A stretch of 64,000 nucleotides of DNA, from the IMG/VR virus record IMGVR_UViG_3300021387_001666, positions 1-64,000 of that record; one strand, given 5' to 3'. The DNA comes from a virus. Its lineage: Duplodnaviria; Caudoviricetes. The number at the start of each line of letters is the position of its first letter. Position 1 is the first letter of the stretch. The position numbers were made by a program, and so were the translations under genes. This document shows positions 1,317-50,948 of the stretch, piece by piece. The notes beneath the pieces are model-generated. The model searched no databases. It was not told the DNA's origin and saw nothing but the letters and a program-made list of their open reading frames with translations.

Positions 1317-1820
1317 AAAGTGGCACATGCTGTAGTTAAATGGTTAATTTGATACAGATAGGAAGTCATGAACCACAGCATTTGAGATATGTTGTGCTTT
1401 CAGAGATTCTTGCAAGATATAACATATTACACTTCTAATGAAGCACCCTTTGAGTGATAACCCTTCGTATGTTATAAATCTCTTTCCGCACCCTTCCTTT
1501 ATTCTCACACGGAATAGATACCTCATACCCTTCCTTTGATATGGTAGCATTCTTCATAGAGGTCAGTGCCTAACGGCTCTTCTACTTCTCGCGTACCTAT
1601 TTTTCGCCCTCAAAGCCCTAAATAGCACCTAACAGCACTCCTTGGATTTCTCCGTGGGCTGTTACAGGGGCACTGGTTTGTGCTACATACTGTTGCCCCT
1701 TTTTCTGAGACTAAGAGATTTTGGAAGATACAGACAGTCGCTCACCATAGTAAAGCCCTTAATCATTAGATTCAAATGTCCTATACATCTGCCATGACTG
1801 TCTGTAAACCGTGCCACTTT
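1317..1820 (-). ncRNA. Unassigned ~500-nt large structured RNA upstream of tRNA-Gln
   Basis: Closing 10-bp helix 1811-1820/1317-1326; internal helices 1796-1806/1729-1739, 1713-1721/1476-1484, 1694-1700/1666-1672, 1658-1664/1630-1636, 1371-1381/1327-1337; no credible ORF; promoter and boxA-like element upstream. Confidence 0.7.
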
Positions 1821-1831
1821 ATATGTAAACC

Positions 1832-1867
1832 TGTCAAAGAACTCTCTTGTTTCTTGCCGCAAAGGTA
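1832..1867 (-). promoter_or_regulatory. Bacteroidetes -7 promoter (TACCTTTG, 1860-1867) followed by boxA-like GTTCTTTGACA (1832-1842)
   Basis: Matches TAnnTTTG consensus; boxA-like motif typical of stable-RNA leaders. Confidence 0.7.
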
Positions 1868-2009
1868 TATAAATAACTTGGAGCTGAAATGAGTCTAATA
1901 GTCACACTAAGATTTTACTTATTTTCATGGGTATCAAATATAAATAATAATATAAAACCCATGATGAATGCCAGTGTGACTTTGACTATTAATGGTTCTA
2001 TAGATGTAT

Positions 2010-2288
2010 TCATTTTGAAAATAGATTTAAAACATCGTCTATACTATATTCATTATTCTCAGGAGGAGTGAATTTGCTTGAGGACTCAGAAGGAGGGAGA
2101 GGGGAGGGGAAGAGGTTATTAATATTATGCCTATTCTTGGAAGATGAAAGTATTACCTCCCCCTTTTCCTCATTCCCTAAGGCTTCTAAGGATTCAACAT
2201 AGAGACTTATGAGCCTGAATATGTCAATATCTTTGGATAGTCCTCTTTTTAAAACAAACACCTCTATGTCAGATAGTCTTATCTTCAT
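2010..2288 (-). CDS. Hypothetical protein
   Basis: 92-aa ATG ORF co-oriented with neighbours. Confidence 0.55.
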   Translation of the reverse strand: MKIRLSDIEVFVLKRGLSKDIDIFRLISLYVESLEALGNEEKGEVILSSSKNRHNINNLFPSPLPPSESSSKFTPPENNEYSIDDVLNLFSK

Positions 2289-2369
2289 GAGAATCGAACA
2301 TACAATATCCTATGATAGCTGCTATCAGGAAAGCTGCTGATGTCAAAGCCAATGAATAAATGAGTATCA

Positions 2370-2618
2370 TCATTGTTCATAGTATTTAGAATAGTTATTA
2401 AGCCTGGCTTCTCCCTTAGCAAAGAAACACCTTGCTACCAGTTGTGAGTTGGAATGTGTGGGAGATACAAAGGGATTGAGGTTTTGTTGTCTTCTGATTT
2501 GCTTTGAAACCAGCTTCCTCATGATAGGATTGAGTTCCTTATGGAAAGCTATAAAACTCTTGTGACTCTGCTGTAGATCCTCTTGGATGTCCAACATTGC
2601 TTGTTCTTTTGCATTCAT
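2370..2618 (-). CDS. Hypothetical protein
   Basis: 82-aa ATG ORF with AT-rich leader. Confidence 0.65.
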   Translation of the reverse strand: MNAKEQAMLDIQEDLQQSHKSFIAFHKELNPIMRKLVSKQIRRQQNLNPFVSPTHSNSQLVARCFFAKGEARLNNYSKYYEQ

Positions 2619-2769
2619 ACTGCTAATGTTTTAAAGGGTTATAATTAAATGGATTGTAAGCTGTGGATATATCTAAAGGGCAATAAAAAGAGAGGGAGCG
2701 GAAAGTATTACTACCTTCCTACTCCCTCCATACAAAAACCCTTTAAATAACATGAAACCATGATATTAG

Positions 2770-2844
2770 TGAGCCTGAGGGGACTCCAACCCCTAACCGT
2801 GATTTTAGAAGAATCATGCTCTAATGCTGTTGAGCTACAGGCCC
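2770..2844 (-). tRNA. tRNA-Arg(TCT)
   Basis: Acceptor GGGCCTG/CAGGCTC, D arm GCTC..GAGC, anticodon stem TGATT/AATCA with loop CTTCTAA, T arm AGGGG-TTGGAGT-CCCCT (variant T loop). Confidence 0.88.
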
Positions 2845-3190
2845 TTATAGAAGGAGCCACTATATTTATTCTAACTTATTATGGCGTAAAGAGGAAAAAT
2901 GCAGTGTGGCTCCTTCTAATAGATTATACTATTCTGTATTCATTCTTAAGCTTTGGCTTTAGCTGCCATGCTTCTTCCTTCTGAAGGTAAGACAGCTTAG
3001 AGTCGTCTGCTTCATAGTTTATCCAATCAGTCCAGGATACTCCTTCAGAAGTGAATATTTGGTATCTTTTCTGTATCATAGTTTAATCCGGTTAGAATTG
3101 TATCTTCCTCTTCATCGGGAATACCTATGTATGGATAGTCAAGGCAAGGCTGCTTTGCTGCCTGTACCATTCTGTAACCTTGGGATAGTG

Positions 3191-3583
3191 TCATTGTTTC
3201 TTAGCTATAAGTTTTTCTATTTGCTGCATCAAACTAAGAGTTTCTTCCTTGACTCTCTCAATAGGCCACTTTTCTCTTGTGTCACCATAGTGGACAGTAT
3301 CAAAGCCAATGACTCTGAAGTTCTCCAAATCCTTGGGGTCAGGAATGCTTGTAAGAGGTATAAAAGACCTGTTCTCCATGAAATTCCAATTTTCATCAAG
3401 GGTTATACCTCCATGCACAGAAACTAAATAGTCAAGGGATTTATTATCATCCCAACCTGCTCCGCTCATAGAAGATATAGGAAGTTCTTCACTAAAAGCT
3501 ACATAACCATTATACTCCCCACCTCTGTTTTCTGCATGAAATGCGTGGTGGAAGGGGTTCATCATTAAGAATGCTATTACCAT
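3191..3583 (-). CDS. Conserved hypothetical phage protein
   Basis: NGYV...VHGGIT...IGFDTVHYGD motif set seen in a widespread phage family. Confidence 0.75.
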   Translation of the reverse strand: MVIAFLMMNPFHHAFHAENRGGEYNGYVAFSEELPISSMSGAGWDDNKSLDYLVSVHGGITLDENWNFMENRSFIPLTSIPDPKDLENFRVIGFDTVHYGDTREKWPIERVKEETLSLMQQIEKLIAKKQ

Positions 3584-3756
3584 AGTTATTTTTGTTTTTC
3601 AAATTCTTCAAATACCATATCATCAATGACCATATCTACATAGTCATGTGCCAGAGCAACATCTATTGATGTGAGACTTTCACCGTTAGCAGGCTTGTTG
3701 AGAAGCTTTTTGGCTTTAAGCAGGAGGGTTATCTTTTCTTGAGGTGTCATAATTAC

Positions 3757-4107
3757 TTATATCTTTAGGGTTCTATAGTCTAAACCATCAGGAGTATAGA
3801 TAGTGGTATAGTCAGGATTTCCCTCTGGAGAATTTCCTTTCATATACTCATAATCTTTCCATACTATAGGATGAATTTCATCATAGGACTTGTCTTCTCC
3901 TGGATAACAGAAGTTAATCATCACCTCTTTAATCTGCTGTTCTGTTAGATGACCATAGTAAGATATGGCACATTCTCCAAACTGGTCCATATAGAGGCTG
4001 CGGAACTTATTTATCTTCTCTCCCTTCTTATTTTCCCTTAAGGATAAGACATAAGCTGCATTAGCAAGGAAGGGAACCTCAATGTCTTGGATTGTTGTTG
4101 CGTACAT
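3757..4107 (-). CDS. Hypothetical protein
   Basis: 116-aa ATG ORF in operon. Confidence 0.7.
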   Translation of the reverse strand: MYATTIQDIEVPFLANAAYVLSLRENKKGEKINKFRSLYMDQFGECAISYYGHLTEQQIKEVMINFCYPGEDKSYDEIHPIVWKDYEYMKGNSPEGNPDYTTIYTPDGLDYRTLKI

Positions 4108-4137
4108 ATTATGTTTGTTTAAAGGGTTTGTTTGAAT

Positions 4138-4692
4138 TTATCTGTTATTCTCTATATATGTCATAAAGAGAGAGTCTATCTCACTAGTATCATCAATAGA
4201 TGATTTCTTTGTAGTAAGAATAAAAGATCTGAGAAGTAACATATCCTGATAAGGAGGCTCAAAGGAAGAAACATAGTTGATTGTGGCTTGTAAAGCTTCC
4301 TCTGGTGTAAAGTGGAAGTCATGTACAGCTACAAGGGTTCTGAGCTTCTGAGCTATTATATTAATCGTACCTCTCCATTTATGGGTAGTCCCTGGTTTAT
4401 TGCCCTGAGGATAACAGTTCATCAGTTTTATAGCCAACTCCTCAAAGTCTATACCAGAGTTGATTACTTTCTCATTGGATTCCAGAAGTATTTGAGCAAC
4501 TAAGTCCTTGTTGTTATTGGAAAGGATAATACTCATAGTCTTCATTACATTTCTTTCAGCAAGAGCTTTTTTGATAATAGTATTGTGACAGTCTTCTAAG
4601 TCTATCTCGAAGTAACCTAATAGTAGCAGAAGAAATTCTCCAAGGGAAAGATTGTGTTTCTGAAGTATCTTTGTATTTATTGTTATATTCAT
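4138..4692 (-). CDS. crAss-type conserved protein, possible replication/DNA-binding
   Basis: 184 aa; N-terminal wHTH-like region, FEEL...YP.G.K.GT..WRG segment. Confidence 0.6.
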   Translation of the reverse strand: MNITINTKILQKHNLSLGEFLLLLLGYFEIDLEDCHNTIIKKALAERNVMKTMSIILSNNNKDLVAQILLESNEKVINSGIDFEELAIKLMNCYPQGNKPGTTHKWRGTINIIAQKLRTLVAVHDFHFTPEEALQATINYVSSFEPPYQDMLLLRSFILTTKKSSIDDTSEIDSLFMTYIENNR

Positions 4693-4910
4693 AATCTAAG
4701 AGATTTATATTGTTTATCAGTAAGAATAATCCAGTTACCATTATAATCTTCACATAACCAGTCACCTAAACGAGCGATCTGACCATTGGTAAGATGGTAA
4801 CAATAGGAGTTATTTTCTTTATGGATAGAGGTAATACAAGACAAATTGAATATATCTTCAATGCATTTACCTTCAATGTGTATAGATTGTCTAAGTCTCA
4901 TAGCTAACAA
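4689..4910 (-). CDS. Hypothetical protein
   Basis: Short ORF overlapping neighbours; GDWLCED...W motif. Confidence 0.55.
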   Translation of the reverse strand: MLAMRLRQSIHIEGKCIEDIFNLSCITSIHKENNSYCYHLTNGQIARLGDWLCEDYNGNWIILTDKQYKSLRL

Positions 4911-5079
4911 GTTCTAAGCAATTCTCTGAAGCATAACTCTTTAAACCATCATTAAATTGAATGGTATAGAAGGGTTTGGTAGTTCTGCAAGTATCTACGA
5001 TAGTAACTATATCTCCTATATTGTTTGGGGAAAGGAAATTCTTAATTATCTTACACCTATCACCAATCTTATATTTCAT
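4891..5079 (-). CDS. Small SH3/KOW-like hypothetical protein
   Basis: MKYKIGDRCKI...GDIVTIV...E.CLELV pattern. Confidence 0.65.
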   Translation of the reverse strand: MKYKIGDRCKIIKNFLSPNNIGDIVTIVDTCRTTKPFYTIQFNDGLKSYASENCLELVSYET

Positions 5080-5087
5080 AAGTACAA

Positions 5088-5393
5088 TTACTTTTCTATT
5101 AAAGTATTAATTTCTTTTTCACAGGATTTCTTAGAAAGATAAGACTCAAGTATAGCATCATAATCAGGGAGAATAGCATACTCTACCAACGTCTTTATGC
5201 AATATTCAATAGATACTTGTTCTGTATGTATATCAGTTTTTTCCAGAGACAGAAATAATCTATTTTGTGTATAGCAAAGCCATGTAGTGACAGCAGTATT
5301 ATTATGTATCTCAAAACCTGTACTATCTATCACAATAGCTGTTATTTCATCTTTATTGGGAGTTTTAAAGGTGAAGACTTCGTTTTTCTTCAT
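5088..5393 (-). CDS. Hypothetical protein
   Basis: 101-aa ATG ORF. Confidence 0.65.
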   Translation of the reverse strand: MKKNEVFTFKTPNKDEITAIVIDSTGFEIHNNTAVTTWLCYTQNRLFLSLEKTDIHTEQVSIEYCIKTLVEYAILPDYDAILESYLSKKSCEKEINTLIEK

Positions 5394-5667
5394 GTTATTT
5401 GTAATATTTGGGTTTGTTTGGAGAATAAAATGTAATCTAATTACTAAAAACTGGACAAAAAAGATAGATAGCAGGACGTAATAGTTGCAAATATTGAACT
5501 ATAAAGGGCAGTAAAATGTGTAATGTTAAAATTGATAGGTTAAAAGTGTGTAGAGTTGGGAGGCTCCGCAATCCTTTGGGGGAGTGGATATTCCACAATC
5601 TCTACACACATAACTATCTAAGGCACAGACAGTTACAACATATTACTAAGAAGAAAAGCTGAGTGTA

Positions 5668-5982
5668 TTAAACACCCAACTCCACATCTTCCCAAGCATT
5701 TGCACCCTGCTTACAGAGAGAATAGTTGCCACTCTCAAGTTCAACAACCTGGAGAGAGTCCTTCTGCTCTGCAATCTCACGAGGAGACAGCTCTCCCATC
5801 TTGCTAGAGAATGCAACAAAGCAGCGGCTGTTATCCTCAGGATTGGTGAAGATACAGGACTTGAAAGCCTCACCTGTTTCCTTATTGACAAAATCTCCCA
5901 CCTGCATCTTGCCATGAGACTTGGCAAATGCCAGAAGTGACCAACTGTTCTTAATACCTACATTCTGAGCTGTATTAGCCAT
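5668..5982 (-). CDS. Conserved beta-rich protein, paralog A
   Basis: 104 aa, highly similar to 8359-8676 product. Confidence 0.85.
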   Translation of the reverse strand: MANTAQNVGIKNSWSLLAFAKSHGKMQVGDFVNKETGEAFKSCIFTNPEDNSRCFVAFSSKMGELSPREIAEQKDSLQVVELESGNYSLCKQGANAWEDVELGV

Positions 5983-6108
5983 AATGAATTCAGGCCCCTA
6001 ATTGTCCTGTATGTGCTGCAATACTAACATAAACTATCAAGGACAGCAAACCCTATCAAGCCTTTAAAACTATTTGAATTTCACATTAGCATAGCTAACT
6101 GCTACTCT

Positions 6109-6149
6109 CCAAAATATAGGGGTGGTGATGTGTCTCTTGACTACTTATA
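6109..6149 (-). promoter_or_regulatory. Repeated phage-specific upstream element, copy 1
   Basis: TATAAGTAGTCAAG...CACCA..CCTATATTTTGG, 41 nt; same spacing as copy at 8131-8171. Confidence 0.55.
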
Positions 6150-6350
6150 AAACTACAAAGCCTCTTCATCTTGCAGGACTTACCAAAAGAAAGAAATATA
6201 AAAGAAAGAAAAGGTAGTCCAAAACCTAATGTGGTGTGCTGGCTTTATCTTATTACATTAATATAAATCATTAATGGATTTAGTAAGTAGCATTATAGTA
6301 TAGATACTTTTAATTAATTATGCATTGTTAAATATTAAAAGGATAACATT

Positions 6351-6638
6351 ATGAAAGATTATTTTTATTTAAATCTGTCCAAGATGATAGAGCTCTCCAA
6401 GATATTGGGGAACAGTGAGATTAAGATGATGCTGGGAATTATGTATTGTCTGAGTATTACAGGCGAGAAGTGGTTTGTTAATAATGCAGAGAATAGGAGC
6501 AGAATAGCCAGTATAGGTTTTAACAAGACTCCTGAGAGAATAAGCACACAGCTTGGCTCTATGACTAAGAAGGGTGTTCTGAAGAGAGAGGCTAATGGTG
6601 TCTATAGTATTCCTGAAGGGCTATTTATTGTTCCCTAA
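6351..6638 (+). CDS. RepL-like winged-helix protein (short)
   Basis: C-terminal wHTH: ..ISTQLGSMTKKGVLKREANGVYSIP. Confidence 0.65.
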   Translation: MKDYFYLNLSKMIELSKILGNSEIKMMLGIMYCLSITGEKWFVNNAENRSRIASIGFNKTPERISTQLGSMTKKGVLKREANGVYSIPEGLFIVP

Positions 6639-6698
6639 ATAATATAATATAGAGAGAGAAAGTTAACTGCTTTAATATCAGCATTTTATAGAAAATTA

Positions 6699-6783
6699 CA
6701 TCCTCAAATATGAGTGAAACATCCTCAAATATGAGGCAACTTGTATCAAATATGAGGAAAACTTCCTCAAGAAATGAGGAAAA
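6699..6783. repeat. Four ~21-bp iteron/operator-like repeats with palindromic core CCTCA-AATA-TGAGG
   Basis: TGAG at 6711, 6732, 6753, 6775 (spacing 21,21,22). Confidence 0.85.
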
Positions 6784-6818
6784 AGTAGTCATTAGAATGA
6801 TTAAATAGTAATCAAATT

Positions 6819-7283
6819 ATGAGTAAATATACTACAAGAATAGTCTCAAATAGAAGATTAGACCCAGAGACTAAAGAGTTGAGGGAATACACTTACAGAA
6901 CAGAAGTTATAAAGAATGAGGTAGAGCCGTTCTTTCTAACATATAGCAGGGAAATACTGGCTCTATATGGTAAATCCATATTTAATGCTACTACCAAGGT
7001 ATTGTGGAAACTACTGGAGTTTGCAGAGTACAATACAGGAAAGGTATATATCACAACCGAAAGGAGAAATACCATTATGGATGTCTGTAGTATCTCAAGA
7101 GCATCTTACGACAGAGCTGTCAGAGAATTAGTGGAAGCGGAGATTATGAAGAAGGAAGGAAATACTTATACCATCAGGCATGATATGTTCTGGAAGGGTG
7201 ACAGGGATGAAAGGAAGAGGTTATTAAATGCCAGACTTAAAATATCATTCTCCCCTGTATTTCCTAAAGATATTGAAGATTAA
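6819..7283 (+). CDS. RepL-like plasmid replication initiator / wHTH protein
   Basis: KVLWKLLEFAEYNTGKV...ISRASYDRAVRELVEAEIM...Y.I...FWKG, RepL-family pattern; RepL-like genes are known in crAss-like phages. Confidence 0.75.
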   Translation: MSKYTTRIVSNRRLDPETKELREYTYRTEVIKNEVEPFFLTYSREILALYGKSIFNATTKVLWKLLEFAEYNTGKVYITTERRNTIMDVCSISRASYDRAVRELVEAEIMKKEGNTYTIRHDMFWKGDRDERKRLLNARLKISFSPVFPKDIED

Positions 7284-7380
7284 TAAAAAGAAAAGAAAGG
7301 GAGGAGAAGGATAATCCCCTGCTTAAAGCAAGACTATAAAGGAGCTGAACTTATTCAGGTAAAGCCCAACTCCTTATCAG

Positions 7381-7599
7381 TCACTTTCTCAGCTTGGATG
7401 CAGCATCATAATACTCATAGTTGTCAATGGCATCTATCCAGTTGTACTCATCCTCAAGAGTATCAAGCAGTGCCTCAGTTGACTCGTAGTAGTAATGATA
7501 CTTGTCCACCTGGCTGATTGAACTGTTCCATCCAGCCACACACACCATATTGCTGACCAGCAATACCAGTACAGCAATCAAAAGCTTCTTATCTGTCAT
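7381..7599 (-). CDS. Small membrane-anchored hypothetical protein
   Basis: N-terminal hydrophobic helix. Confidence 0.65.
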   Translation of the reverse strand: MTDKKLLIAVLVLLVSNMVCVAGWNSSISQVDKYHYYYESTEALLDTLEDEYNWIDAIDNYEYYDAASKLRK

Positions 7600-7735
7600 A
7601 TCTAATTGAATTAAATGTTATCTACTAATATACCAGCTACTATTGCCAAAAGCCAGCTTATAGCTCATGGCATTAAGGTAAGAGGTGAAGTTGCCCCTTA
7701 CCAAATATCCATAAGAGTCAAATACCTTATACATA

Positions 7736-7999
7736 TCACAGAGTCTTAAAGTCCTTACAATGCTGGTTGTACTCCTCAATGGTAATCTTCATAGGACCAA
7801 AGCAAGTAATGATGATCTTAAAGCCCTGATGCTGAATCCTTGGTCTCTTAGGTCTGACAGCCTTAATCTCCCAGCCCTCATCAAGCATTTTCTTTAAGTC
7901 ACTTACTTCAAATTCCTTATGAGCCCTAAGTCTTTCCTTTCTGTTAGGTGTTGATGAACTAATGCACCATTCTCCCTTGTAAATCTTCTTATTGTTCAT
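7736..7999 (-). CDS. Hypothetical protein
   Basis: 87-aa ATG ORF downstream of repeated upstream element. Confidence 0.65.
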   Translation of the reverse strand: MNNKKIYKGEWCISSSTPNRKERLRAHKEFEVSDLKKMLDEGWEIKAVRPKRPRIQHQGFKIIITCFGPMKITIEEYNQHCKDFKTL

Positions 8000-8130
8000 A
8001 GTTGTATTGTTTTTAAGTCATTGTCTATCAAAAAGGCAAGATAAGATGTAATATGCGTCGAGTCCCCAAAGTATTTGCAACTACTACGGTTCATACTGCA
8101 CTCTTAGATGATTCATTACACCCTCTCCTG

Positions 8131-8171
8131 CCAAGATATAGGAATGGTGCTGTCTTCCTTGACTATTTATA
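8131..8171 (-). promoter_or_regulatory. Repeated phage-specific upstream element, copy 2
   Basis: TATAAATAGTCAAG...CACCA..CCTATATCTTGG. Confidence 0.55.
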
Positions 8172-8358
8172 AATCTAATGAAGTCTTATACCTTATTATA
8201 TTATATAGCACTAAGATAAAAAGCTAATACAGCTGCGCAGTTTTTAAAATTTTCATTTTGTTGGCTTTGAGGTTCTGCGATGTGTTTCCTTGAAATCATC
8301 AGCAAAGCATTTCAAAAAAAGAAGGGAAGCAGGATTTCTCCCACTTCCCATTCTCTCC

Positions 8359-8676
8359 TTACAGGCCAAGGTCAACATCCTCCCAGGCATTCTGACCCTG
8401 TTTGCACAGGCTGTAGTTGCCTGACTCCAGCTGAACCACTTGGAGTTCATCCTTCATGGTAGCAATCTCCCTTGGGGTCAATTCACCCATCTTGGAACTG
8501 AATGCCACGAAGCATCTGCTCTGGTCTGGTGCAGTGAAGATGCAGGACTTGAAGACCTCTCCAGTCTCCTTGTTTGCAAACTCACCGACTTGCATCTTCC
8601 CATGACTTCTTGCAAAGGCAATGAGTGACCAGCTGTTGATGATTCCCTGGTTGTTGTTACTGTTGTTCTGTGCCAT
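8359..8676 (-). CDS. Conserved beta-rich protein, paralog B (start ATG 8676)
   Basis: MAQNNSNNNQGIINSWSLIAFARSHGKMQVGEF...AWEDVDLGL; aligns end to end with paralog A. Confidence 0.85.
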   Translation of the reverse strand: MAQNNSNNNQGIINSWSLIAFARSHGKMQVGEFANKETGEVFKSCIFTAPDQSRCFVAFSSKMGELTPREIATMKDELQVVQLESGNYSLCKQGQNAWEDVDLGL

Positions 8677-8837
8677 AGTAGTATCTCCTCTCAGAGCTGC
8701 GGACCTATCAGAGTTCAGGTCTAACTCCACCACAAACCATACTGCTAACTTCGAAGGTGGTGAATCTCCTCTGTTAGGGCGGGGGTATATCCCCAATCCA
8801 AAATCAGGAGGGGGTGGTGTGTGGGTTTATCCCCGTC

Positions 8838-9092
8838 TTTTATACATACAATAGATTTTTTTGAAAAATGGCAGGGGGGGATGAACCCCAACTGTCAAGG
8901 ACAGGGGGAGGTGTGATATGTTATGTCACACTTATACACATACTTTACATTTTTAGATAAAATCCCTCCCCTCGTTTTTACACATACAATAGAAATTCCA
9001 CAAATATGTCCCACTTTTATACACACCTAAGATTTTTCTAAAATTGTCCTCCGCTTATACACATACTCCAAATTTTTCTAAAATCCCCCACC
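8838..9092. repeat. Degenerate ~40-44-bp tandem repeats at the strand-switch region
   Basis: Units TT(A/T)TACACATAC..A(G/A)ATTTTT..AAAAT..CCC starting near 8931, 8975, 9014, 9054 (plus 8838). Confidence 0.6.
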
Positions 9093-9177
9093 ACAAGTAC
9101 TACCTTCCTCAACTCTTCTTACCACTCTCCTTATATCTTCCTGTTAATAAAGGAATGTATATACCTTTGCCAGAAAA

Positions 9178-9564
9178 ATGGGAAGAATAGAGGTACATAA
9201 TAGGGAAGTAATGACCAGTGCAGAGTATAGGGCTAATCAAATGGATACATGGCCATCTCCTCTTGAAGAGAGAATGAAGGATTTTCTTGATGAGAATTAT
9301 ATTGAGTATGAGTCTCAGAAAATATTCTATATCTATGCTGATGATGGTTGGATAACAAAATACTACATAGCAGATTTCTATATACCCCATGCTGATATAA
9401 TTATAGAAGTGGATGGTAAATTTCATGATGACCATAAACAGCATGATAAAATGAGAACCAAGGAAATACAAGAACAATATCCTGGGATAGAGGTTCTGAG
9501 ATACAAATGGAAGGATTTATCTGATGCAGATAAAATGGATGATTTGTTATGCAGAATACAATAG
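9178..9564 (+). CDS. DUF559/Vsr-like PD-(D/E)XK endonuclease
   Basis: YIADFY...IIEVDGKFH...D..R...VLRY motif. Confidence 0.85.
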   Translation: MGRIEVHNREVMTSAEYRANQMDTWPSPLEERMKDFLDENYIEYESQKIFYIYADDGWITKYYIADFYIPHADIIIEVDGKFHDDHKQHDKMRTKEIQEQYPGIEVLRYKWKDLSDADKMDDLLCRIQ

Positions 9565-9694
9565 GTAGTTTATTTAAGTCCTAATGTCTTTATTTATAGG
9601 TGTTTAGGCAAATTTCTTGGCAATGTGTTGGCAGTAAAAAGATTATTTTGTACCTTTGCATCGTCAAAAGATGTTTAACTAACACCTTATTATA

Positions 9695-10024
9695 ATGAAA
9701 GGGTTAAGACAGTACATTAGAAAACATGGCAAACACTTTACTGAAAAACTTGCAATGTCCATAACCAAAGGTAGATGGAGTTCTTCTGAGATTATGGAGA
9801 AGGCTGAGTCTATGGTGTACTATAATGTCACAGGCTCTACCATTGGTGATATAGTCTTCCTGACCAACTATGCCAAAGATACTGGCAAGGTATTCTACAA
9901 GACCAAATATAACTGTGTTAGATTTGCTTTGTGTATTGTTGGGGAGTATACCATGAGAGATGGTGCTATGTTCAAGAAGTGGGTAGGGGATATAAAGGAT
10001 TTTGACTTTACACCTTATATATAA
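9695..10024 (+). CDS. Hypothetical protein, paralog of 56815-57237
   Basis: YIRKHGKHFTEKLA vs YINNYGCHFSKKLY; own TACCTTTG promoter at 9651-9658. Confidence 0.7.
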   Translation: MKGLRQYIRKHGKHFTEKLAMSITKGRWSSSEIMEKAESMVYYNVTGSTIGDIVFLTNYAKDTGKVFYKTKYNCVRFALCIVGEYTMRDGAMFKKWVGDIKDFDFTPYI

Positions 10025-10106
10025 TAATGGGATGATTTTTAGTTAAATATGAAAAATTGTTCAAGTAGAATTTGGTAATATCAGATATTCTTCGTACCTT
10101 TGCAGG

Positions 10107-10605
10107 CAAACAGGATGCCCATGGTCAGAGGAGACACTACCAAAGACTGGAAGACTGTAAAAGAGTTTTTTGAAATGGCTGAAATATTAGTAACTGTAGG
10201 ATTGCAATCTACCTAGGATAGAGAGGCTCTCGGTCAGATGACACACAACTACCCCCAAGATTCCCACAGGGATGCTGCGAGGTATTTATCCAAGGTCAGA
10301 AAGATTGCCAGTAACAGAAGATGGTTCTGGAAACTATGTACTGTTCAGGGGTTATCGGGGTGAAAATTTCTAAAGGTCTGAAAAGACAAAACCACTGCTA
10401 TAGCAGGAAGGAAGAATAGACTGGTCCAAAAGCTGTATTTCAGTGGAAGTAACACTTCCAACCTTCCCATTAAAGCAGGTTTTTGGGGAGGCCCCCGTAT
10501 GAAAAAGTTCTTCTAGTAGTCTTTTAAGTTTGATAGATTACAGTTACTCTTTAATGCCCGCCTGAAATATGACTTGTTGTAAAATAAGATACTAGCATGG
10601 GAGTT
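10107..10605 (+). ncRNA. ROOL-like large ornate ncRNA
   Basis: ORF-free, between promoter TACCTTTG (10095-10102) and terminator; terminal CCCATG/CATGGG pairing, crossing long-range helices, GNRA-capped hairpins; motifs GGGATGCTGCG, GTAACAGA, TATGTACTG, CCTGAAATATG recall ROOL consensus (from memory, unverified). Confidence 0.75.
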
Positions 10606-10619
10606 AACCCTTGCATTAT

Positions 10620-10665
10620 GAAGTCCCTTCCAAATTTTAGAGCCTCTCGGAAGGGGCTTCTTTTT
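10620..10665 (+). terminator. Intrinsic terminator after ncRNA
   Basis: GAAGTCCCTTCC...GGAAGGGGCTTC-TTTTT. Confidence 0.8.
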
Positions 10666-10738
10666 GTCTTAGCACAATCCTAAGATGCTTTGAATCTATC
10701 CTCCTTATGGTTAATTTTGCAATCAAAAAAGGAAGAGT

Positions 10739-11344
10739 ATGAAAAAGTATTTAATTCTTACTATTATTGTTTTGCTCGCCCTCGTAGGAGTTATGTGGAA
10801 GCAGGTAAAGTATGTCAATCAGAAGTGGGAGACTTCAGAGGCTAATCTGAAAGCCTATGCCAATATTAATAGAGAGGTTGAAGGACAGAATATGGCCTTA
10901 CATCTTACTATAGACCAGCTTGGCTATTTTAAGGATTCTGTACTTCAGGAACTTGACAATACAAGAAGACAGCTGAAGATTAAAGACAAGAACCTCAAAG
11001 CCCTTCAGTCAGTATCTTCCAGCTTTTCCAAATCAGATACCATTATCCTCAAGGACACCTTATTCAAGGAGGTATCATTAAATATTGATACTGTTCTTGG
11101 GGATAAGTGGTATAATGTCAGGCTAGGACTCAAGTATCCTTCCATGATTGCAGTAAAACCATATTTTAAGAGTGAGAAACATATTGTAGTCTCCAGTAAG
11201 AAGGAAACTGTTAATCCTCCTAAGAAGTTCTGGCTGTTCAGACTTTTTCAGCGCAAGCATCTTGTTTTGCATATTGATGTGATTGAGAAGAATCCATACG
11301 TTAAGGACGAGACAAGTAGGTATGTTGAAATTTTAAAACAGTAG
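10739..11344 (+). CDS. Rz/spanin-like membrane-anchored coiled-coil protein
   Basis: N-terminal TM helix, coiled coil, DTIILKDT and KKFWLFRLF segments typical of Bacteroidetes phage spanin-like proteins. Confidence 0.65.
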   Translation: MKKYLILTIIVLLALVGVMWKQVKYVNQKWETSEANLKAYANINREVEGQNMALHLTIDQLGYFKDSVLQELDNTRRQLKIKDKNLKALQSVSSSFSKSDTIILKDTLFKEVSLNIDTVLGDKWYNVRLGLKYPSMIAVKPYFKSEKHIVVSSKKETVNPPKKFWLFRLFQRKHLVLHIDVIEKNPYVKDETSRYVEILKQ

Positions 11345-11347
11345 GAT

Positions 11348-11539
11348 ATGGTCATTAGTATAACCTTATTATATATAGTAGGAGCATTGGCAATGCACTA
11401 CATTGTATGTAAAAACTGTAGGGAGGATGTGGAATACCCTTCAGTTAGTATAGCCTGTCTATTATGGCCTATAGCTTTGGCCATATATTGTTTATTGTAT
11501 ATAGAACGATTTTTCAGATTCATAGGTAATAAATTTTAA
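11348..11539 (+). CDS. Small two-TM membrane protein
   Basis: Two hydrophobic stretches, LLWPI motif. Confidence 0.6.
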   Translation: MVISITLLYIVGALAMHYIVCKNCREDVEYPSVSIACLLWPIALAIYCLLYIERFFRFIGNKF

Positions 11540-11603
11540 GTTCTTTGTTTCATGTTTTTTGATTTCAATTATTTTTCCTCTTGCTTGTGAAAGCAGGAGG
11601 TTT

Positions 11604-12749
11604 TTATATTTCCAAGTCCCGAATAGCCTTTACCACAGTCTCATCCAATAGTTTTGCATATACCTGTTCTGTAATCTTAGTGGAGGAGTGCCCACATATT
11701 TTAGATACTATTTGCATGGGAACTCCTTCATTTAATAATAAGGTAGCTCCAGTATGTCTTGCCCAGTGAGTAGTTAATGGTTTGTCTATACCAGCAGCCT
11801 GAGCTACAATCTTTAGATACTCATTATACTTTACATTGCTTATGACAGGCAGTTTTCCATCATATTTATGTAATATATCCAATGCAGGAGAAAGTAATGG
11901 TATGGTAAAAGTCATGTTGGTCTTAATTCTGCTTCCTACATATACATTCACACCTTTAACTTCCTGCACCATTCTACTATCAAATTCCAATAAGTCTGAG
12001 TAACTAAGACAGGTGTAGGTTTGGAATACAAAGACATCCCGTACTCTTTCAATACATGCTGTAGGCATTTTAGATACTTTTAACCTACGGAACTCTTCAG
12101 GAGTCAGATATTTACTTATTCCACTGGTATTCTTTCCTCTGTCAATGTTTAGCCATTTATAGGGATTCCTTGTTATATAACCAGCACTCATAGCTTCTGA
12201 GATAAGGGTGTTCATATATTTATGGTAGTTCCCCCACTTACTGCTGACACACATTTTCATGTCAGAAAGGTACTTATCAAAGGCTATAATATTAGTATCA
12301 TTTATATCATTAAAAGACACTATCTTATTCCATTTGTAGAACAGTTTGGTAAAGCAGTCATATCTTTTTATAGTTCCAGGTGCCTTGCCATACTTCCATA
12401 CAGATACTCTCTGCTCCATAAATTCTACAAAAGTTTTAATGGTATCATTTCTTTTATAAAGCTCATCAGATAATTGGTTGATGTCAATACCTTTGTCATT
12501 CATCATATTGTATAGGATAGTTCTTATGTCTACAAGCATTTTGTCTAATGTCTGGCTTATCTGTATGAGATCAGGACAATTAATGATTTTTCCTTTCTTC
12601 CATTGGTAGGCATATAGCATGACTCCAGTACTAATGTACTTCTGTTGATAGTTATAACATACTCTGATTTCAACAGATGCCTTCCTTGTATCTGTAGCTG
12701 TCTTTCTTCTATCAAAGACTAATGTAATGCTTGGCTGTTTGTTATTCAT
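11604..12749 (-). CDS. int: Tyrosine integrase, Bacteroidetes (IntDOT/NBU-like) family
   Basis: N-terminal arm-binding domain (VEIRVCYNYQQKYISTGV), SAM-like core, TCLSYSD (Ser at first catalytic Arg position, as in IntDOT), HWARH, CGH, Tyr in QVYAK. Confidence 0.93.
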   Translation of the reverse strand: MNNKQPSITLVFDRRKTATDTRKASVEIRVCYNYQQKYISTGVMLYAYQWKKGKIINCPDLIQISQTLDKMLVDIRTILYNMMNDKGIDINQLSDELYKRNDTIKTFVEFMEQRVSVWKYGKAPGTIKRYDCFTKLFYKWNKIVSFNDINDTNIIAFDKYLSDMKMCVSSKWGNYHKYMNTLISEAMSAGYITRNPYKWLNIDRGKNTSGISKYLTPEEFRRLKVSKMPTACIERVRDVFVFQTYTCLSYSDLLEFDSRMVQEVKGVNVYVGSRIKTNMTFTIPLLSPALDILHKYDGKLPVISNVKYNEYLKIVAQAAGIDKPLTTHWARHTGATLLLNEGVPMQIVSKICGHSSTKITEQVYAKLLDETVVKAIRDLEI

Positions 12750-12808
12750 TGTTAAAGATTGTTAGTTTGGTGTTAATTGAAAATGTATTTATTATTTTAG
12801 AAACTTTG

Positions 12809-13166
12809 TGTACATAATAATTATGTACAGTGTACAGAATATGTACAGAATAAATATTGTATTCTAATATATAGGTTGGTTTATTATGATGGATAAAAAT
12901 AAAAAAAGAAAAAGATGCTATACACACCTTCTTCTCTGTTTAGTAGGAACATTCGGATTCGAACCGAAGACCTCTTCAATGTGACTGAAGCGCTCTAAAC
13001 CAGCTGAGCTATGCTCCTATCTGTTGCTCCCGTTGCCTTCCTGGTGAACCCGTTGGGATTCAAACCCAGAGGAAGAGAAAGATGTGTATGTGTTTAATAC
13101 CTAAATAGTTAGGTGGGAGGCTTAGTGATTACTGTATTGAGAGTGTACATAATATGTAAAGAATAA
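12809..13166. mobile_element. Putative attP: arm-type repeats flanking a tRNA-3'-end core
   Basis: TGTACA(T/G)AAT repeats at 12809, 12820 (inverted), 12831, 12842, 13144, 13155; core 13042-13068 reads TGGGTTTGAATCCCAACGGGTTCACCA on minus strand. Confidence 0.8.
12944..13018 (-). tRNA. tRNA-Val(CAC)
   Basis: Acceptor AGGAGCA/TGTTCCT, anticodon stem CTTCA/TGAAG with loop GTCACAT, T arm TTCGG-TTCGAAT-CCGAA. Confidence 0.9.
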
Positions 13167-13191
13167 GTATTTTTTTGTTTTTAGACTGATG

Positions 13192-13305
13192 CAAAGATAG
13201 CCATATTTTTTCAGATTATATCTGTATCCCAGCCTTAAATAACATTAAAAAATAGATAGTTTAATGGGAAAAATTAGGTTGTCTAAAGATTTTTGTTTAT
13301 CTTTG
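13192..13305. promoter_or_regulatory. Divergent Bacteroidetes promoters (minus 13192-13199; plus 13298-13305)
   Basis: Both TATCTTTG followed by CA. Confidence 0.7.
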
Positions 13306-13416
13306 CAAAGTCATTCATGGAAACGTAACACACTGAAAAACAATCTAAAAAGAATAGTGGTTAAAGTTTTACTTGAAGATATTTTGTAAAATCTAACTCT
13401 TAAAAGAATAACAACT

Positions 13417-13632
13417 ATGGTAAAAATGACCAAACAAGACCTACAATGGCAGGCAGAAAGTGATGCTTCCACAATGGCGAGGTATCAGGAAATTATCAGT
13501 GACAAGGCTAGAATGAACAGAGCTATTAAAGAAGCTAATAAACAAGCTTCTGACTTGAATAAGAGGGCTAATGCTATGAAGAGTGCAGCTAATATCAAGG
13601 CTACAGGAGGAAAAGTAAGCAGGAGGAAATAA
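13417..13632 (+). CDS. Small basic helical protein
   Basis: WQAESDA.TMARYQEI..D motif, Lys/Arg-rich tail. Confidence 0.75.
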   Translation: MVKMTKQDLQWQAESDASTMARYQEIISDKARMNRAIKEANKQASDLNKRANAMKSAANIKATGGKVSRRK

Positions 13633-47353: not shown

Positions 47354-47386
47354 AAAAGAGGAAGTCATTTGGCTTCCTCTTTTTTA
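47354..47386. terminator. Bidirectional intrinsic terminator
   Basis: AAAAGAGGAAGTC-ATTT-GGCTTCCTCTTTTT between convergent genes. Confidence 0.85.
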
Positions 47387-47399
47387 TTTTTATAGGATT

Positions 47400-47612
47400 T
47401 TACTTATTCTTAGTAATACTATCTGCTTGTTCCCAAGTTAAATCTCCTTGAACCCCCTTCATCATTTCCTCCTGGGATAGATTAAATTCCTCCATAAATA
47501 CAGTATCAACAGGGACATCTTCTACTGTTTCACTCATGTTGTCTTCTGTAATATAATAAGATAGGATGGTGATTATCAAAACTCCTATTATTACAAAACT
47601 TTTCTTTTTCAT
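47400..47612 (-). CDS. Small membrane-anchored acidic protein (70 aa)
   Basis: MKKKSFVIIGVLIITILSYY; start reassigned to ATG 47612. Confidence 0.7.
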   Translation of the reverse strand: MKKKSFVIIGVLIITILSYYITEDNMSETVEDVPVDTVFMEEFNLSQEEMMKGVQGDLTWEQADSITKNK

Positions 47613-47619
47613 ATAATTA

Positions 47620-49911
47620 TTATTTTGGTCCTTTACCATTCTTATACCAATATTTTCCTGATGTTTCCCACCAGTCCTTAACAGCAGGGATTTGCCATGC
47701 TGTTTTACCAGCAGAATTAACATCTTTAGTATGCTTGGAATTTCCAGTATTATAATCTCCTTGGGCATAATACCTGAAAGCATCTAGTAAAGGAGGGGTA
47801 TTTCTATCTACATTGGCATTATTATATTGAAAGTTTCTCACTAAGTTTTCAGCAGGAATATAACCAAAAGCTGTAAAATAATTAGTATTACCTAATGCTC
47901 TATTATATATAGCATTTCCATCCTTATAGTTAAAATAAGGCATAGCCCCATTATGTGTTTCCTGAGTAGATAGTCCAAGCATCTCATTCATATTAATTTG
48001 TCTGGGAGCACCATATCTACTTCTTTTCTTGCGAGGATGTTCAGACAGTTGAGGGTTTCTATTATAAATACCTGCATATTTAGCCAGACTATCCAAGACA
48101 TTGGTTGAAGTAGTACTACCATTAATAAGAATAGATTTCTCAGGGATAAAAGGAATATCAAAGACAGGATTAGATGCTCCATTCTGAGCAGCATTATCTA
48201 CTATCTTTAGTTTCATCTGCCTTTCCAACCTCTCACTATCATTCTTTGTCTTTGAGGTATTTGGTCTTTGCCTCTTTGGAACCAGTTTCAATTCTTGTTT
48301 GTTTGGATAAACAGCTTTAATTACTTCAGCAGGCTTTCCTCTGTAAGTATATTGTTTTGATTTTTTCTCTGGTTCAGAAGAGAATAAACCTTTTAGCCAT
48401 TCTAAGAAACCACCATCTTCATATGTATTAGTCATAGCCATATCTACCATTGGCTCTTGAAGGGATCCTCCAAGTCCATGCTTCCAGTGTCTGCTATTCA
48501 GTGCAAAGGTAGCCATCTTCTTTTGAGCAGGAGTACCATGCTCCTTAAACCATGTGGCAGAATGACCTGTCCTCTCCTTCAGAGCGGTAAACTTTCCTCT
48601 ATTCTCTGGCTTGATATGGATTTTACCTCCTGAATCATACAGACTCATCATTTGGGCCACCTCTTTATAGTGCTCTCCAAAATACTTTGCATCATCCTCA
48701 TTATCAAATTTTATGGATTGCATATAGCTTCTCTGATCATTCTCAGGAGACCACACATTGTCTATAAATGCAAGGCCTCTGCCAGTATCTTGTATTTGAG
48801 GAGTTACCAGATTTTCATAAGACCCCACATATACATTGCCTCTTTTAGGTTCTCCAATACCTTTGTCATATTCATATTCCCCAGGCCATGTATAGCTTCT
48901 GGTGTCATAGTTAGTCATCCTCCTGGCAGTAGGATTGCCAAAATTGGCACTAATAGCCAGCTTTGACTTCATCATTCCAGTCATTGCAGGATTGGTATCT
49001 CCACCCTCAGCAAACTCATTATATTTGTCTTTGATTTCTTGAAGATTGGTAATACCGTTACTAACAGCTACCTTTATCATAGCAGCTTTCTCATTCATGG
49101 AAAGATTCTCCCATGCGTTTTTAGGTTGATACAAATAACCTCCTTCAGACATCTGTTTGATTGGTATATTGACTATAGGTTTACTAATTTTGAGTGCATC
49201 AGGTTGTTCAGTATGAGATGGGGCACTAACATTAAAGTTAGGTTTATAATCATCAGAATTTAGATTATATTTAGAGAAATATTGTTGCTTCCATTCCATT
49301 CGTTTCTGTGGAGAACCGATATATCTGAATGCAGTAGGAGTCCCAAGAGCATCTGATAAACTACTTAGTCTCTCATTTTTCTTCATTGTTGGGATAGTAT
49401 CTCCTTTATAAACTATATATGGAACACTATTTCCATTACTGTAGCTAAAAGTAGGCTCCCCTTTAAATGTTCTACCTGTCATAAGTACACTATGATGAGG
49501 TCCAAGTCTTTCGTCAGAAAATTGAACTAAATCTCCTTCTGCAACACTGTCTATTGGGATTACCTCAAATCCAAATTTATCAGGATTTCTTCTAAATGTT
49601 TTATTTCCTGAGACTTTAGCTCCCCTATCATTAAATTGACTAGTAGCAGTATATATACATGTTTCAGGATCAGCTGTTCCAAAGTATTTAATCCTTTCCT
49701 CATCTGACATTCCTATAATGGCAGCAGCAATGCTCCAAGGTGCTCTGCTTGGTATTATGGGGACATTAGGTGCAGTTTGTTGTAAAATATGAGAAGCTGC
49801 TGTACTTCTACTTTTAATAGCTTGCTCCTCTATATAACTTTCTAAAGATGGTATTGTGTAATTACCTTTAGGGGTTACTATTATCTCTCTTGTCAGGTAT
49901 TTCTTTGGCAT
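47620..49911 (-). CDS. Modular polyprotein: NlpC/P60-like N-domain, xxGG-separated modules, SLT/lysozyme-like C-domain
   Basis: ETCIYTAT...GDLVQF..GPHHSVL (Cys/His); IHIKPENRGKFT..FALNSRHWKH module; LSTQETHNG...DYNTG. Confidence 0.65.
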   Translation of the reverse strand: MPKKYLTREIIVTPKGNYTIPSLESYIEEQAIKSRSTAASHILQQTAPNVPIIPSRAPWSIAAAIIGMSDEERIKYFGTADPETCIYTATSQFNDRGAKVSGNKTFRRNPDKFGFEVIPIDSVAEGDLVQFSDERLGPHHSVLMTGRTFKGEPTFSYSNGNSVPYIVYKGDTIPTMKKNERLSSLSDALGTPTAFRYIGSPQKRMEWKQQYFSKYNLNSDDYKPNFNVSAPSHTEQPDALKISKPIVNIPIKQMSEGGYLYQPKNAWENLSMNEKAAMIKVAVSNGITNLQEIKDKYNEFAEGGDTNPAMTGMMKSKLAISANFGNPTARRMTNYDTRSYTWPGEYEYDKGIGEPKRGNVYVGSYENLVTPQIQDTGRGLAFIDNVWSPENDQRSYMQSIKFDNEDDAKYFGEHYKEVAQMMSLYDSGGKIHIKPENRGKFTALKERTGHSATWFKEHGTPAQKKMATFALNSRHWKHGLGGSLQEPMVDMAMTNTYEDGGFLEWLKGLFSSEPEKKSKQYTYRGKPAEVIKAVYPNKQELKLVPKRQRPNTSKTKNDSERLERQMKLKIVDNAAQNGASNPVFDIPFIPEKSILINGSTTSTNVLDSLAKYAGIYNRNPQLSEHPRKKRSRYGAPRQINMNEMLGLSTQETHNGAMPYFNYKDGNAIYNRALGNTNYFTAFGYIPAENLVRNFQYNNANVDRNTPPLLDAFRYYAQGDYNTGNSKHTKDVNSAGKTAWQIPAVKDWWETSGKYWYKNGKGPK

Positions 49912-49913
49912 AT

Positions 49914-50168
49914 TTATCTAATTAACGGTTCTATTATGCTACAGTAAACACAGGGAGTATAGATAAGCCTGTCTCTTTCAGACGCTATACAGCTATCTTT
50001 CTGTTCTGAAGTCCAGCCATTGTTTTCTGCTTTTCTTTCAGCTAAATCAACAGCAATAAGTAATTGGGTTTTATTTTTGGCCTTTTGCTGTTCTGTACAA
50101 GAATGGTTTTCTACAACTGCTAATCCAAGCAGTAGTACTCCTATTATTATATATAGTATTTTTTTCAT
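49914..50168 (-). CDS. Small membrane-anchored/exported protein
   Basis: MKKILYIIIGVLLLGLAVV; promoter TAAATTTG 50187-50194. Confidence 0.7.
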   Translation of the reverse strand: MKKILYIIIGVLLLGLAVVENHSCTEQQKAKNKTQLLIAVDLAERKAENNGWTSEQKDSCIASERDRLIYTPCVYCSIIEPLIR

Positions 50169-50272
50169 ACTTAATTATATTTGCTGCAAATTTAAGAATT
50201 ATTTCTATATTGACAAAGGATATAAGAAGTTTTCTTATCTAACAGACTTTTTATTATCAAAAAGACACAATT

Positions 50273-50737
50273 AGTCCCTTATGGACTTTCTTGGCTCATC
50301 ATCTTGAAACTTCCACTGCGCGGTCAGTTCAGCTAACTCGTAGCATAATTTAACTGTAATCTCCCTATTACCCCATTTACCCTCTACCTCTTTTCCATCA
50401 TAGCTTGGCGGGGAACAGCTTTATATTCAAGAAATTTGTGGCCTATCGGAGTTTGAGCTATCCTGTTATCTCGGAGATTATGTTTCCTCTTCTGAGGTAT
50501 CTCCTACAATCCGACTTCTGACCCTTACCATCTGCTTCCTGTTTCTCAATGGCGTAGGGTGTACATGAGACTATGACTCTCAAGGGCCTAAATATCTGGT
50601 AATAAAAACCAGAGAAAGAAAAATTGCAACCCTATAGTGACTCACAGGTTGCAATTATCTCCATCTCTGGTATATATTTGAGGAGCTCCCTCCGTCAAAT
50701 CCAACTATGTCCTTGCAATCAGAGTCACTTGATTACT
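50273..50737 (-). ncRNA. Putative structured RNA / leader with kissing-loop pair
   Basis: Promoter TATCTTTG 50742-50749; hairpins 50715-50736 and 50609-50670 with complementary loops; more helices downstream; no ORF. Confidence 0.5.
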
Positions 50738-50948
50738 GATGCAAAGATACACATATTTTTATAATAACCAAAATTTTAGCAGTTAATATTTATTAAATAG
50801 GTACGGGTACATTATTATATGTATTTCAGTTAACTCTTCTATACAGAATAGATAAGGATTGTCCTAAGCTATAGGGTAAGAAGCTGTATTATATTTATCT
50901 TTGCATCAAAGAAAATATATATGTTTAGAATTAATAAAAAGATATAAT

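Follow-up and report, generated by a model that had tools for sequence, protein, structure and literature searches.

The first 64 kb of the 108,188-nt IMG/VR virus record IMGVR_UViG_3300021387_001666 (genome G000, estimated completeness 93%), hereafter the window (64,000 nt), carry three long intergenic segments, labelled R1 (1317–1820), R2 (10107–10605) and R3 (50273–50737) as first drawn, which an earlier sequence-only reading had taken for three structured RNAs. The portal protein of this phage is 53–55% identical to the portals of cr128_1, cr126_1 and IAS virus, and its further matches are crAss-like phages of Bacteroides, Flavobacterium and Cellulophaga. The phage is therefore a member of Crassvirales, the dominant phages of mammalian guts. 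Public runs holding parts of the genome come from bovine and other animal gut samples. Large structured phage RNAs such as GOLLD and ROOL are still among the most poorly understood RNAs, and most known examples come from Firmicutes-type hosts. We find that all three segments are genuine non-coding transcription units, and each is probably an independent gene for a non-coding RNA (ncRNA) that is stable, abundant and acts in trans. The sequence-only reading was thus partly confirmed and was essentially right, with corrections to strands and boundaries.

A scan for the Bacteroidetes promoter motif TTTG-N17-23-TAnnTTTG gave only nine occurrences in the 108-kb genome. Four of these full promoters are associated with the RNAs: one before R2, one before R3, and one right after each of them, ahead of the next protein gene. 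All three units are preceded by a box of the Bacteroidetes host type (TAnnTTTG), and the same type of box drives tRNAs in related phages. The earlier description of the segments as promoter-driven is upheld, although the strands of R1 and R3 differ from what their coordinates had implied. Since their promoter boxes lie on the minus strand, R1 and R3 are minus-strand units, and R2 is a plus-strand unit. In each of the three RNAs the transcribed strand is the G-rich strand. The features of the three loci, together with the related type C RNAs described below, are listed in Table 1.

Table 1. Features of the R1, R2 and R3 loci (window coordinates) and of type C RNAs in related loci (coordinates of the locus named)
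Feature	Position	Strand	Basis or remark
tRNA-Gln(UUG), directly downstream of R1, same strand	1147–1218	-	ARAGORN and Rfam
R1 RNA	1317–1853	-	RNA-library contigs, promoter box, no ORF, folding z -2.7
R1 promoter, -7 box TACCTTTG	1860–1867	-	read directly from minus-strand sequence
R2 promoter (TTTG ... TACCTTTG)	10071–10102	+	motif scan
R2 RNA, ~560 nt	10107–10668	+	RNA contigs, conservation, terminator
R2 hairpin, conserved loop UUAAAGCAGGUUUU, module common with type C RNAs	10459–10488	+	comparison of loops and stems
R2 intrinsic terminator	10640–10659 plus T-run (to 10668)	+	terminator call
Promoter of 201-aa gene; bounds R2 unit, right edge of RNA slot	10689–10719	+	motif scan
Integrase	11604–12749	-	beside the RNA slot
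Promoter of downstream 84-aa and 763-aa genes; bounds R3 unit	50187–50217	-	motif scan, ORFs
R3 core, ~320-nt structured RNA	50262–50590	-	homologues and covariation
R3-core 3' hairpin with family-invariant AGGGA, then weak U-run	50273–50287	-	hairpin call
R3 leader module, ~140 nt	50596–50738	-	occurs alone in G003
R3 promoter (TTTG ... TATCTTTG)	50742–50772	-	motif scan; kept in G003
Type C RNA, ~450 nt promoter-to-terminator, long invariant stretches	L124 1444–1935	+	in R2 slot
Type C RNA, other copy	L112 14260–14700	-	
Type C RNA, other copy	L113		
Type C RNA, other copy	L145 5660–6125	+	
Type C RNA, other copy	L147 588–1080	+	

Contigs of four public runs were placed on window positions 1–13500, a region of 30 bins that includes R1 and R2. 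Three of the runs (X5, X6 and X7) are RNA-seq metatranscriptomes from two studies, and their contigs match 1394–1810 in R1 and 10124–10483 in R2 with zero mismatches. Elsewhere in the 13.5 kb the cover from these libraries was weak, limited to the tRNA-Val region and to one or two short stretches in each run, and 24 to 27 of the 30 bins were empty in each. The DNA-like run X1, from a related population, covered 28 of the 30. Parts of the window without such contigs were not taken as evidence of silence. The restriction of cover to R1 and R2, in two studies, argues strongly that both are abundant stable RNAs. In run X5 the sequencing adapter directly precedes position 10124 in the R2 contig, and an RNA end lying some 15 nt past the predicted R2 start would agree with this.

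None of the three RNAs contains an open reading frame (ORF) of at least 70 amino acids (aa) under translation table 11. Rereading of stop codons (TAG=Q, TGA=W or TAA=Q) opened no credible frame in R1, R2 or R3 but chance frames only, the longest being 118 aa in R1 (four TAG reread) and 113 aa (three TAA reread). The earlier claim that the segments are ORF-free therefore holds. Shorter ORFs of 40–68 aa are present on the transcribed strands, e.g. one of 68 aa at 1550–1344 (minus strand), and would fit mRNAs for small proteins, or decayed genes. However, the small ORFs of R1, R2 and R3 match no PHROGs or Pfam family, the homologues differ by indels of 1, 2, 5 and 8 nt that destroy the frames, the indels in alignments of the R3-core family described next are not multiples of three, and substitutions track base-pairing rather than codons. 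A coding origin is accordingly highly improbable.

R3 as first drawn consists of two modules, a leader and a core, each of which is found separately elsewhere. Homologues of the core with about 71% identity were found by BLAST in the related loci L010, L104, L108 and L109. In a four-sequence alignment 21 of 57 pairs are compensatory, G-U pairs being among the covarying ones, and 99% of the cells are paired. Shuffles gave 7.5±2.1 compensatory pairs and none out of 500 reached 21, while controls in which the partners were slid by 1–3 columns gave 0–4. When nine deep family members are compared, compensatory changes are seen in 24 of the 38 pairs of the consensus, a figure that is approximate, as the 5' end of the crAss001 sequence is misaligned. 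The conserved blocks of the family are GAAGUYGGRUWGUA, a variable covarying hairpin, GAG, CCCNAUA, UAUAA, GA.AA.AGG..AGGGUAAA and AGGGA, the last being kept in all members. The hairpin that encloses the invariant loop ACC...GA.AAAAGGU..AGGGUAAA has a stem that is fully different between types. The R3 core matches the family profiles with nhmmer E=1e-70 to 1.5e-86, which is partly circular as the core is among the profile sequences, but the BLAST matches to the four loci above give independent support for its membership. R1 and R2 gave no match to the R3-core profiles at E up to 10 or 1, and are consequently not members of this family.

A diverged form, type B, was found by profile searches and motif scans in four complete rumen or gut crAss-like genomes of about 100 kb (G033–G036). 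A promoter of the same type precedes it there, and immediately after it comes a tRNA array of 14 genes according to ARAGORN, with more matches by Rfam. The family member in L104 precedes tRNA-Met. The family motif was found in only five of 50 portal-related genomes. A shorter form is located in cr128_1 (MT774392.1, 3916–4211), and a BLAST search with this RNA matched crAss001, cr112_1 and 25 crAssBcn isolates; the records carry no annotation at these positions. In crAss001 (MH675552.1) the profile match lies at 714–898 (nhmmer E=1.3e-15), and the RNA fills the gap between gp2 and gp3 (~663–990) after a TATGTTTG box, with the tRNA array beginning about 700 nt further downstream, beyond gp3 and gp4. 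The RNAs of crAss001 and cr128_1 share with the R3 core the blocks GGGU.GUA, the covarying hairpin, GAG, UUAUAAG, ACC...GA.AAAAGGU..AGGGUAAA and AGGGA, and their helices covary. They differ from it in being distant, alignable by BLAST over about 90–190 nt, and in lying directly before an ORF. By its covariation and profile matches, the R3 core belongs to a new, previously uncatalogued RNA family of Crassvirales with a patchy distribution. Such a family, together with two further RNAs in one genome, is what is new here, since large phage RNAs as a kind (ROOL and GOLLD) and long ncRNAs in the crAss-like phage phi14:2 were already known. Genome records of crAss-like phages at present annotate nothing at these RNA loci.

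A ~430-nt ORF-free unit was also observed in L119 (5535–5985, minus strand) behind a TATATTTG box. It has the R3-family blocks AGAAGUCGGAUUGUAAG ... CCGAUAGG but is otherwise different, and may be a very distant member.

R3 is located where gene orientation and GC skew flip, and it has a purine-rich tract on the transcribed strand. Such a divergent strand switch could be the site of a DNA-level element, i.e. a replication origin, an R-loop primer, or a packaging or recombination site. Yet the R3 core occupies two unrelated genome positions, near the portal gene and in a slot on the integrase side, and is always oriented with a promoter. Furthermore, covariation that includes G-U pairs is a signature of RNA, and RNA libraries contain R1 and R2. 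We regard a function at the DNA level, a reading that concerns R3 more than R1 and R2, as hardly credible.

The first hairpin of the R3 leader has a loop, GUGACUC (50728–50722), exactly complementary to a second loop, GAGUCAC (50643–50637), which sits on a long terminator-like hairpin (50655–50623) followed by a U-run. In the provirus G003, where the leader stands alone before a 248-aa gene, both loops have changed jointly to GUGAGAC/GUCUCAC and their complementarity is kept. This covariation of the loops, and the independent occurrence of the module, indicate that the leader is a conserved regulatory element of the kissing-loop or attenuator type. The core follows the leader in the window and in L010, whereas in L104, L108 and L109 the promoter lies immediately before the core.

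An attenuator-like leader with a covarying loop pair and a terminator-like hairpin, placed directly before a protein gene in G003, would be expected if the units were cis-acting leaders or precursors. R3 would then be a long 5' untranslated region that controls the 84-aa and 763-aa cell-wall hydrolase cassette, R2 would serve the 201-aa gene as its leader, and R1 would make up the 5' part of a precursor of tRNA-Gln. The family members in crAss001 and cr128_1, which end 10–40 nt before an ORF, are in line with this, as is R1, where no terminator was called and the unit runs toward tRNA-Gln. On the other hand, both R2 and the R3 core have a terminator hairpin behind them and, after it, a second full promoter that serves the downstream gene, the R3-core family precedes unrelated genes (the hydrolase cassette, the 201-aa gene, tRNA arrays and gp3), and the RNA contigs lie on the RNAs and are absent from the downstream genes. 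That the three units are leaders or precursors is therefore unlikely.

R2 is located in the slot between a conserved promoter block and the 201-aa gene, beside the integrase, and the flank with the 201-aa gene promoter is conserved in relatives in which the content of the slot differs. In L104, L108 and L109 the slot holds an R3-type core oriented with the slot promoter, and in L124 it holds a third RNA family, type C. L105 has flanks 82–84% identical to those of the window, but the content of its slot is unrelated to R2. R2 itself is absent from the 50 portal-related genomes, where only its promoter block is conserved, in eight of the 50, preceding tRNAs and other RNAs. By eye, an apparent TATCTTTGCA box was seen on the opposite strand of L121 (~1200–1790, minus strand), which is on the same contig as L105, and the slot content of L105/L121 may be a further RNA cassette.

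R2 and the type C RNAs have a common region of about 110 nt that ends in a hairpin with a 14-nt loop. This loop is the same across R2 and type C except at one position (C or A), while the stems around it differ, being CCCA/UGGG in R2 and AGGC/GCCU or GGGC/GCCC in type C. A pattern scan for the UUAAAGCAGGUUUU hairpin found only R2 and type C RNAs in addition to one chance match in a coding region. Another block, GAAGGGUACAGGUAAAG, is common to type C and the R3 family. R2 and R3 thus belong to a web of module-sharing RNAs that stand in for one another at a single locus, and the RNAs behave like accessory cassettes swapped among phages that are syntenic elsewhere. Exchange of cassettes at a fixed slot is the usual pattern for host-interaction or counter-defence genes. 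The sequence-only reading had called the three segments distinct and unrelated. They are distinct, with no significant pairwise sequence similarity among R1, R2 and R3 and with R3 itself composite, but "unrelated" holds only in part, as R2 and R3 share modules and one locus.

The copies of R2 in L102 and L103 are 95% identical to that of the window, whereas the flanking genes are 68–81% identical at the DNA level. This much greater similarity of R2 points to a recent transfer. It is also what would be seen if the RNAs were selfish or neutral mobile genes ('morons') that spread by recombination at their promoter and terminator flanks and are useless to the phage; slot replacement among syntenic phages, the patchy distribution and the 10-bp terminal inverted repeats of R1 agree with such a view. 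Against it speak the strong purifying selection that has acted on structure across a deep divergence spanning rumen phages and crAss001, and the high abundance of the RNAs in the libraries. There is, moreover, no transposase, target duplication or multiple copies, each RNA being single-copy in its genome. We consider useless passengers very improbable.

For R1, the status as an RNA gene rests on four observations, namely the promoter box, the RNA contigs, the absence of ORFs, and a folding z-score near -3 combined with a closing helix of 10 bp. The closing helix pairs 1811–1820 with 1317–1326. No relatives of R1 were found in the 50 portal-related genomes or in five further genomes. A search by way of the neighbouring 92-aa protein returned nothing, a 21-mer scan of IMG/VR was empty, and JGI metagenomes, scanned with 20-mers, yielded no more than one 22-nt match due to chance. 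R1 had no blastn match in named phage records, nor had R2 or R3. The DNA search of the genomes missed the known L108 copy in G052, and negatives from that search are therefore weak. Within these searches R1 is an orphan large ncRNA, unique so far.

Three further observations concern R1. Two short G+C-rich hairpins lie between R1 and tRNA-Gln on the minus strand, CCCCUC-AGCG-GAGGGG at 1227–1242 and GCCC-GUGA-GGGU at 1296–1307. A 12-nt block, CCGUGAGGGUC, around the second of these recurs identically in the L119 RNA. One RNA-library contig from X5 (depth 3.7) joins 1520 to 1708, omitting 187 nt of R1; either the sample also contains a shorter form of R1, or the join may have arisen in assembly.

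The RNAs were compared with known families. Rfam 15 at gathering thresholds found three tRNAs in the window, also found by ARAGORN, and nothing at R1, R2 or R3. No relevant match came from permissive cmscan searches, in which E was allowed up to 10 for R1 and R2 taken singly and up to 5 for the R3 region, and seven related loci gave no relevant Rfam match either. The covariance models of ROOL and GOLLD did not match R1, R2 or R3, nor did the Rfam models of tmRNA, RNase P RNA, 6S RNA, group I and II introns, and riboswitches. ROOL and GOLLD are large ornate RNAs of phages and prophages, hundreds of nt long and non-coding, often located beside tRNA genes with which they are possibly co-expressed (PMC5737381); ROOL was first found in rumen data, and both have been studied by cryo-EM (PMC12286853). 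The window RNAs resemble them in being large, non-coding and phage-borne, in the position of R1 before tRNA-Gln and in that of type B at the head of a tRNA array. They differ in lacking a model match, in belonging to phages of Bacteroidota, and in the size of the R3 core (only ~320 nt). R2, at about 560 nt, is similar in size to ROOL, with only three copies, 95–97% identical, for a comparison of junctions and pseudoknots.

The earlier view that such RNAs are not described for crAss-like phages could not be maintained. The crAss-like Cellulophaga phage phi14:2 is reported to make two long, very abundant and persistent ncRNAs (Drobysheva et al., 10.1101/2020.03.07.982082). These map to the g004–g005 and g005–g006 junctions, are present from early infection on and exceed most mRNAs in abundance, and the paper gave no structures or families for them (10.1101/2020.03.07.982082). 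What phi14:2 and the phage of the window have in common is that both belong to Crassvirales and have several long ncRNAs between genes. Local alignments of the phi14:2 ncRNAs with R1, R2 and R3 had z-scores of at most 2.7, within the shuffle range, and nhmmer E-values above 0.5.

In the g005–g006 gap of phi14:2 (NC_021806.1, 4031–4500, plus strand), where the record has no annotation, ARAGORN calls a transfer-messenger RNA (tmRNA) with the tag GSSVQKLAMVA*. The second phi14:2 ncRNA is thus read as a tmRNA by ARAGORN, unlike any RNA of the window. With phi14:2 as a positive control that was found, ARAGORN detected no tmRNA in the window, L099, L104, L120 or L124. A tmRNA identity for the type A/B RNAs was considered because they have 15 identical nt and three collinear blocks in common with the tmRNA of phi14:2, and was rejected as overall similarity is within that of shuffles; the 15-nt block, which type B shares with that tmRNA, forms one side of a helix that covaries. 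The window RNAs are alike in size range to tmRNA, RNase P RNA, 6S RNA and introns, and alike in their tRNA-gene neighbourhood (tmRNA, RNase P substrates), but unlike tmRNA they have no tRNA-like acceptor or T-arm. A P4-like pairing of AGAAGUCGGG with CCCGAU was rejected as a sign of RNase P RNA, the topology being wrong and the covariance model giving no match.

The R3-core family was also compared with Y RNAs. Both crAss001 (gp96) and G033–G036 have a TROVE gene 4–8 kb away from the family RNA. The protein of G033–G036 is TROVE/Ro60-like and 471–477 aa long (Pfam E=2e-10; in G034 it lies in L092, 1559–2974, plus strand), and in G033 and G034 its gene stands behind the promoter type of the tRNAs and the type B RNA. 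A role as a Ro60 partner was nevertheless rejected for lack of consistent co-occurrence, as no TROVE gene accompanies the RNA in G000, G051, G052 or cr128_1. No Rfam Y-RNA model matched. Just downstream of gp96 in crAss001 there is an unannotated gap of 905 nt (MH675552.1, ~95965–96869, minus strand). It contains two tRNA-like elements with acceptor and T-arm ends and a large internal insertion, which by eye look like YrlA-type Y RNAs and are better Y-RNA candidates.

The sequence-only reading went further and proposed that the three RNAs act in a joint RNA-based programme. This was not supported, as no other genome has the set and no special inter-RNA pairing was seen. The complete relative G051 has only an R3-type RNA, in the R2 slot, and the 50 relatives have neither R1 nor R2. 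Duplex energies among R1, R2 and R3 were -199, -200 and -186 kcal/mol, no better than those of shuffles (means -204, -188 and -184, standard deviation ~10), in a crude test that ignores intramolecular structure. Independent accessory cassettes fit the data better than a coordinated trio. Even so, more than one of the RNAs is expressed or conserved, R1 and R2 being present in RNA libraries, and R2 and R3 being conserved.

The claim that the segments are heavily paired was sustained in part. Covariation proves structure for the R3 core alone, and R2 has one hairpin whose stem covaries with type C. Folding energies, expressed as z-scores against dinucleotide shuffles on both strands, were -3.3 (plus) and -2.7 (minus) for R1, -0.6 and -0.1 for R2, which is not above chance, and -1.4 and -2.3 for R3. 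Taken alone, the thermodynamic evidence for structure across the three RNAs is modest.

Several points weigh against three stable trans-acting RNAs. R1 is without relatives, and its structure is backed only by the z-score near -3. R2 folds no better than its shuffles, and its three near-identical copies (95–97%) show five wobble-compatible changes, three that break predicted pairs and no double changes; covariation is uninformative for R2 because the copies are too alike. The RNA evidence consists of assembled contigs, without strand, true ends or level, to which DNA carry-over may have contributed, and it covers R1 and R2 but not R3. The family members of crAss001 and cr128_1 have an ORF close behind them and lack a clear terminator, an arrangement that suits a leader in those two phages. 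The R3 core of the window has no promoter of its own and lies behind the terminator-like hairpin of the leader, so that its synthesis may need read-through. Finally, the function of all three RNAs is entirely inferred.

We nevertheless favour independent genes for stable, trans-acting RNAs, as stated at the outset. Given the consensus host-type boxes, host RNA polymerase would transcribe R1, R2 and R3 from their own promoters, and a terminator hairpin, a second promoter or both would separate each unit from the next gene. R3 consists of a short regulatory leader followed by the 320-nt core, and the cassettes are swapped at the one promoter–terminator slot beside the integrase. As to function, a high-copy protein-binding RNA that sequesters or scaffolds a host or phage factor (as decoy, sponge or counter-defence) is plausible, at somewhat less than an even chance. 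Such a role in host interaction is suggested by the patchiness, the slot swapping, the recent transfer of R2, the abundance and the accessory neighbourhood of integrase, HNH endonuclease and tRNAs. That such RNAs are repeatedly found heading tRNA arrays suggests a tRNA- or translation-linked role, to which we would give a small chance, and to self-assembly of the ROOL/GOLLD kind a slightly smaller one; other roles make up the remainder. More speculatively, and with a low probability, Crassvirales might stack swappable large RNAs, three of them in this phage, as RNA-only anti-host effectors (decoys for defence nucleases that target tRNA or other RNA, self-assembling particles) in the manner of anti-defence proteins, placed behind a fixed promoter–terminator slot and in front of tRNA arrays. 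If so, the R3-core family would be the first such RNA effector testable in a cultured crAss-like phage. crAss001 and the 25 crAssBcn isolates grow on Bacteroides intestinalis, and the function of the R3 family is therefore directly testable.

Two minor observations concern the genome as a whole. The tyrosine integrase adjoins tRNA-Val (window 11604–13199), and IMG/VR lists G003, a relative, among proviruses, for which reasons some phages of this kind may integrate. Beyond the window, G000 has more gaps of 350–505 nt without an ORF of at least 80 aa, at 64313–64665, 82223–82584, 83158–83594, 85168–85672 and 106334–106806.

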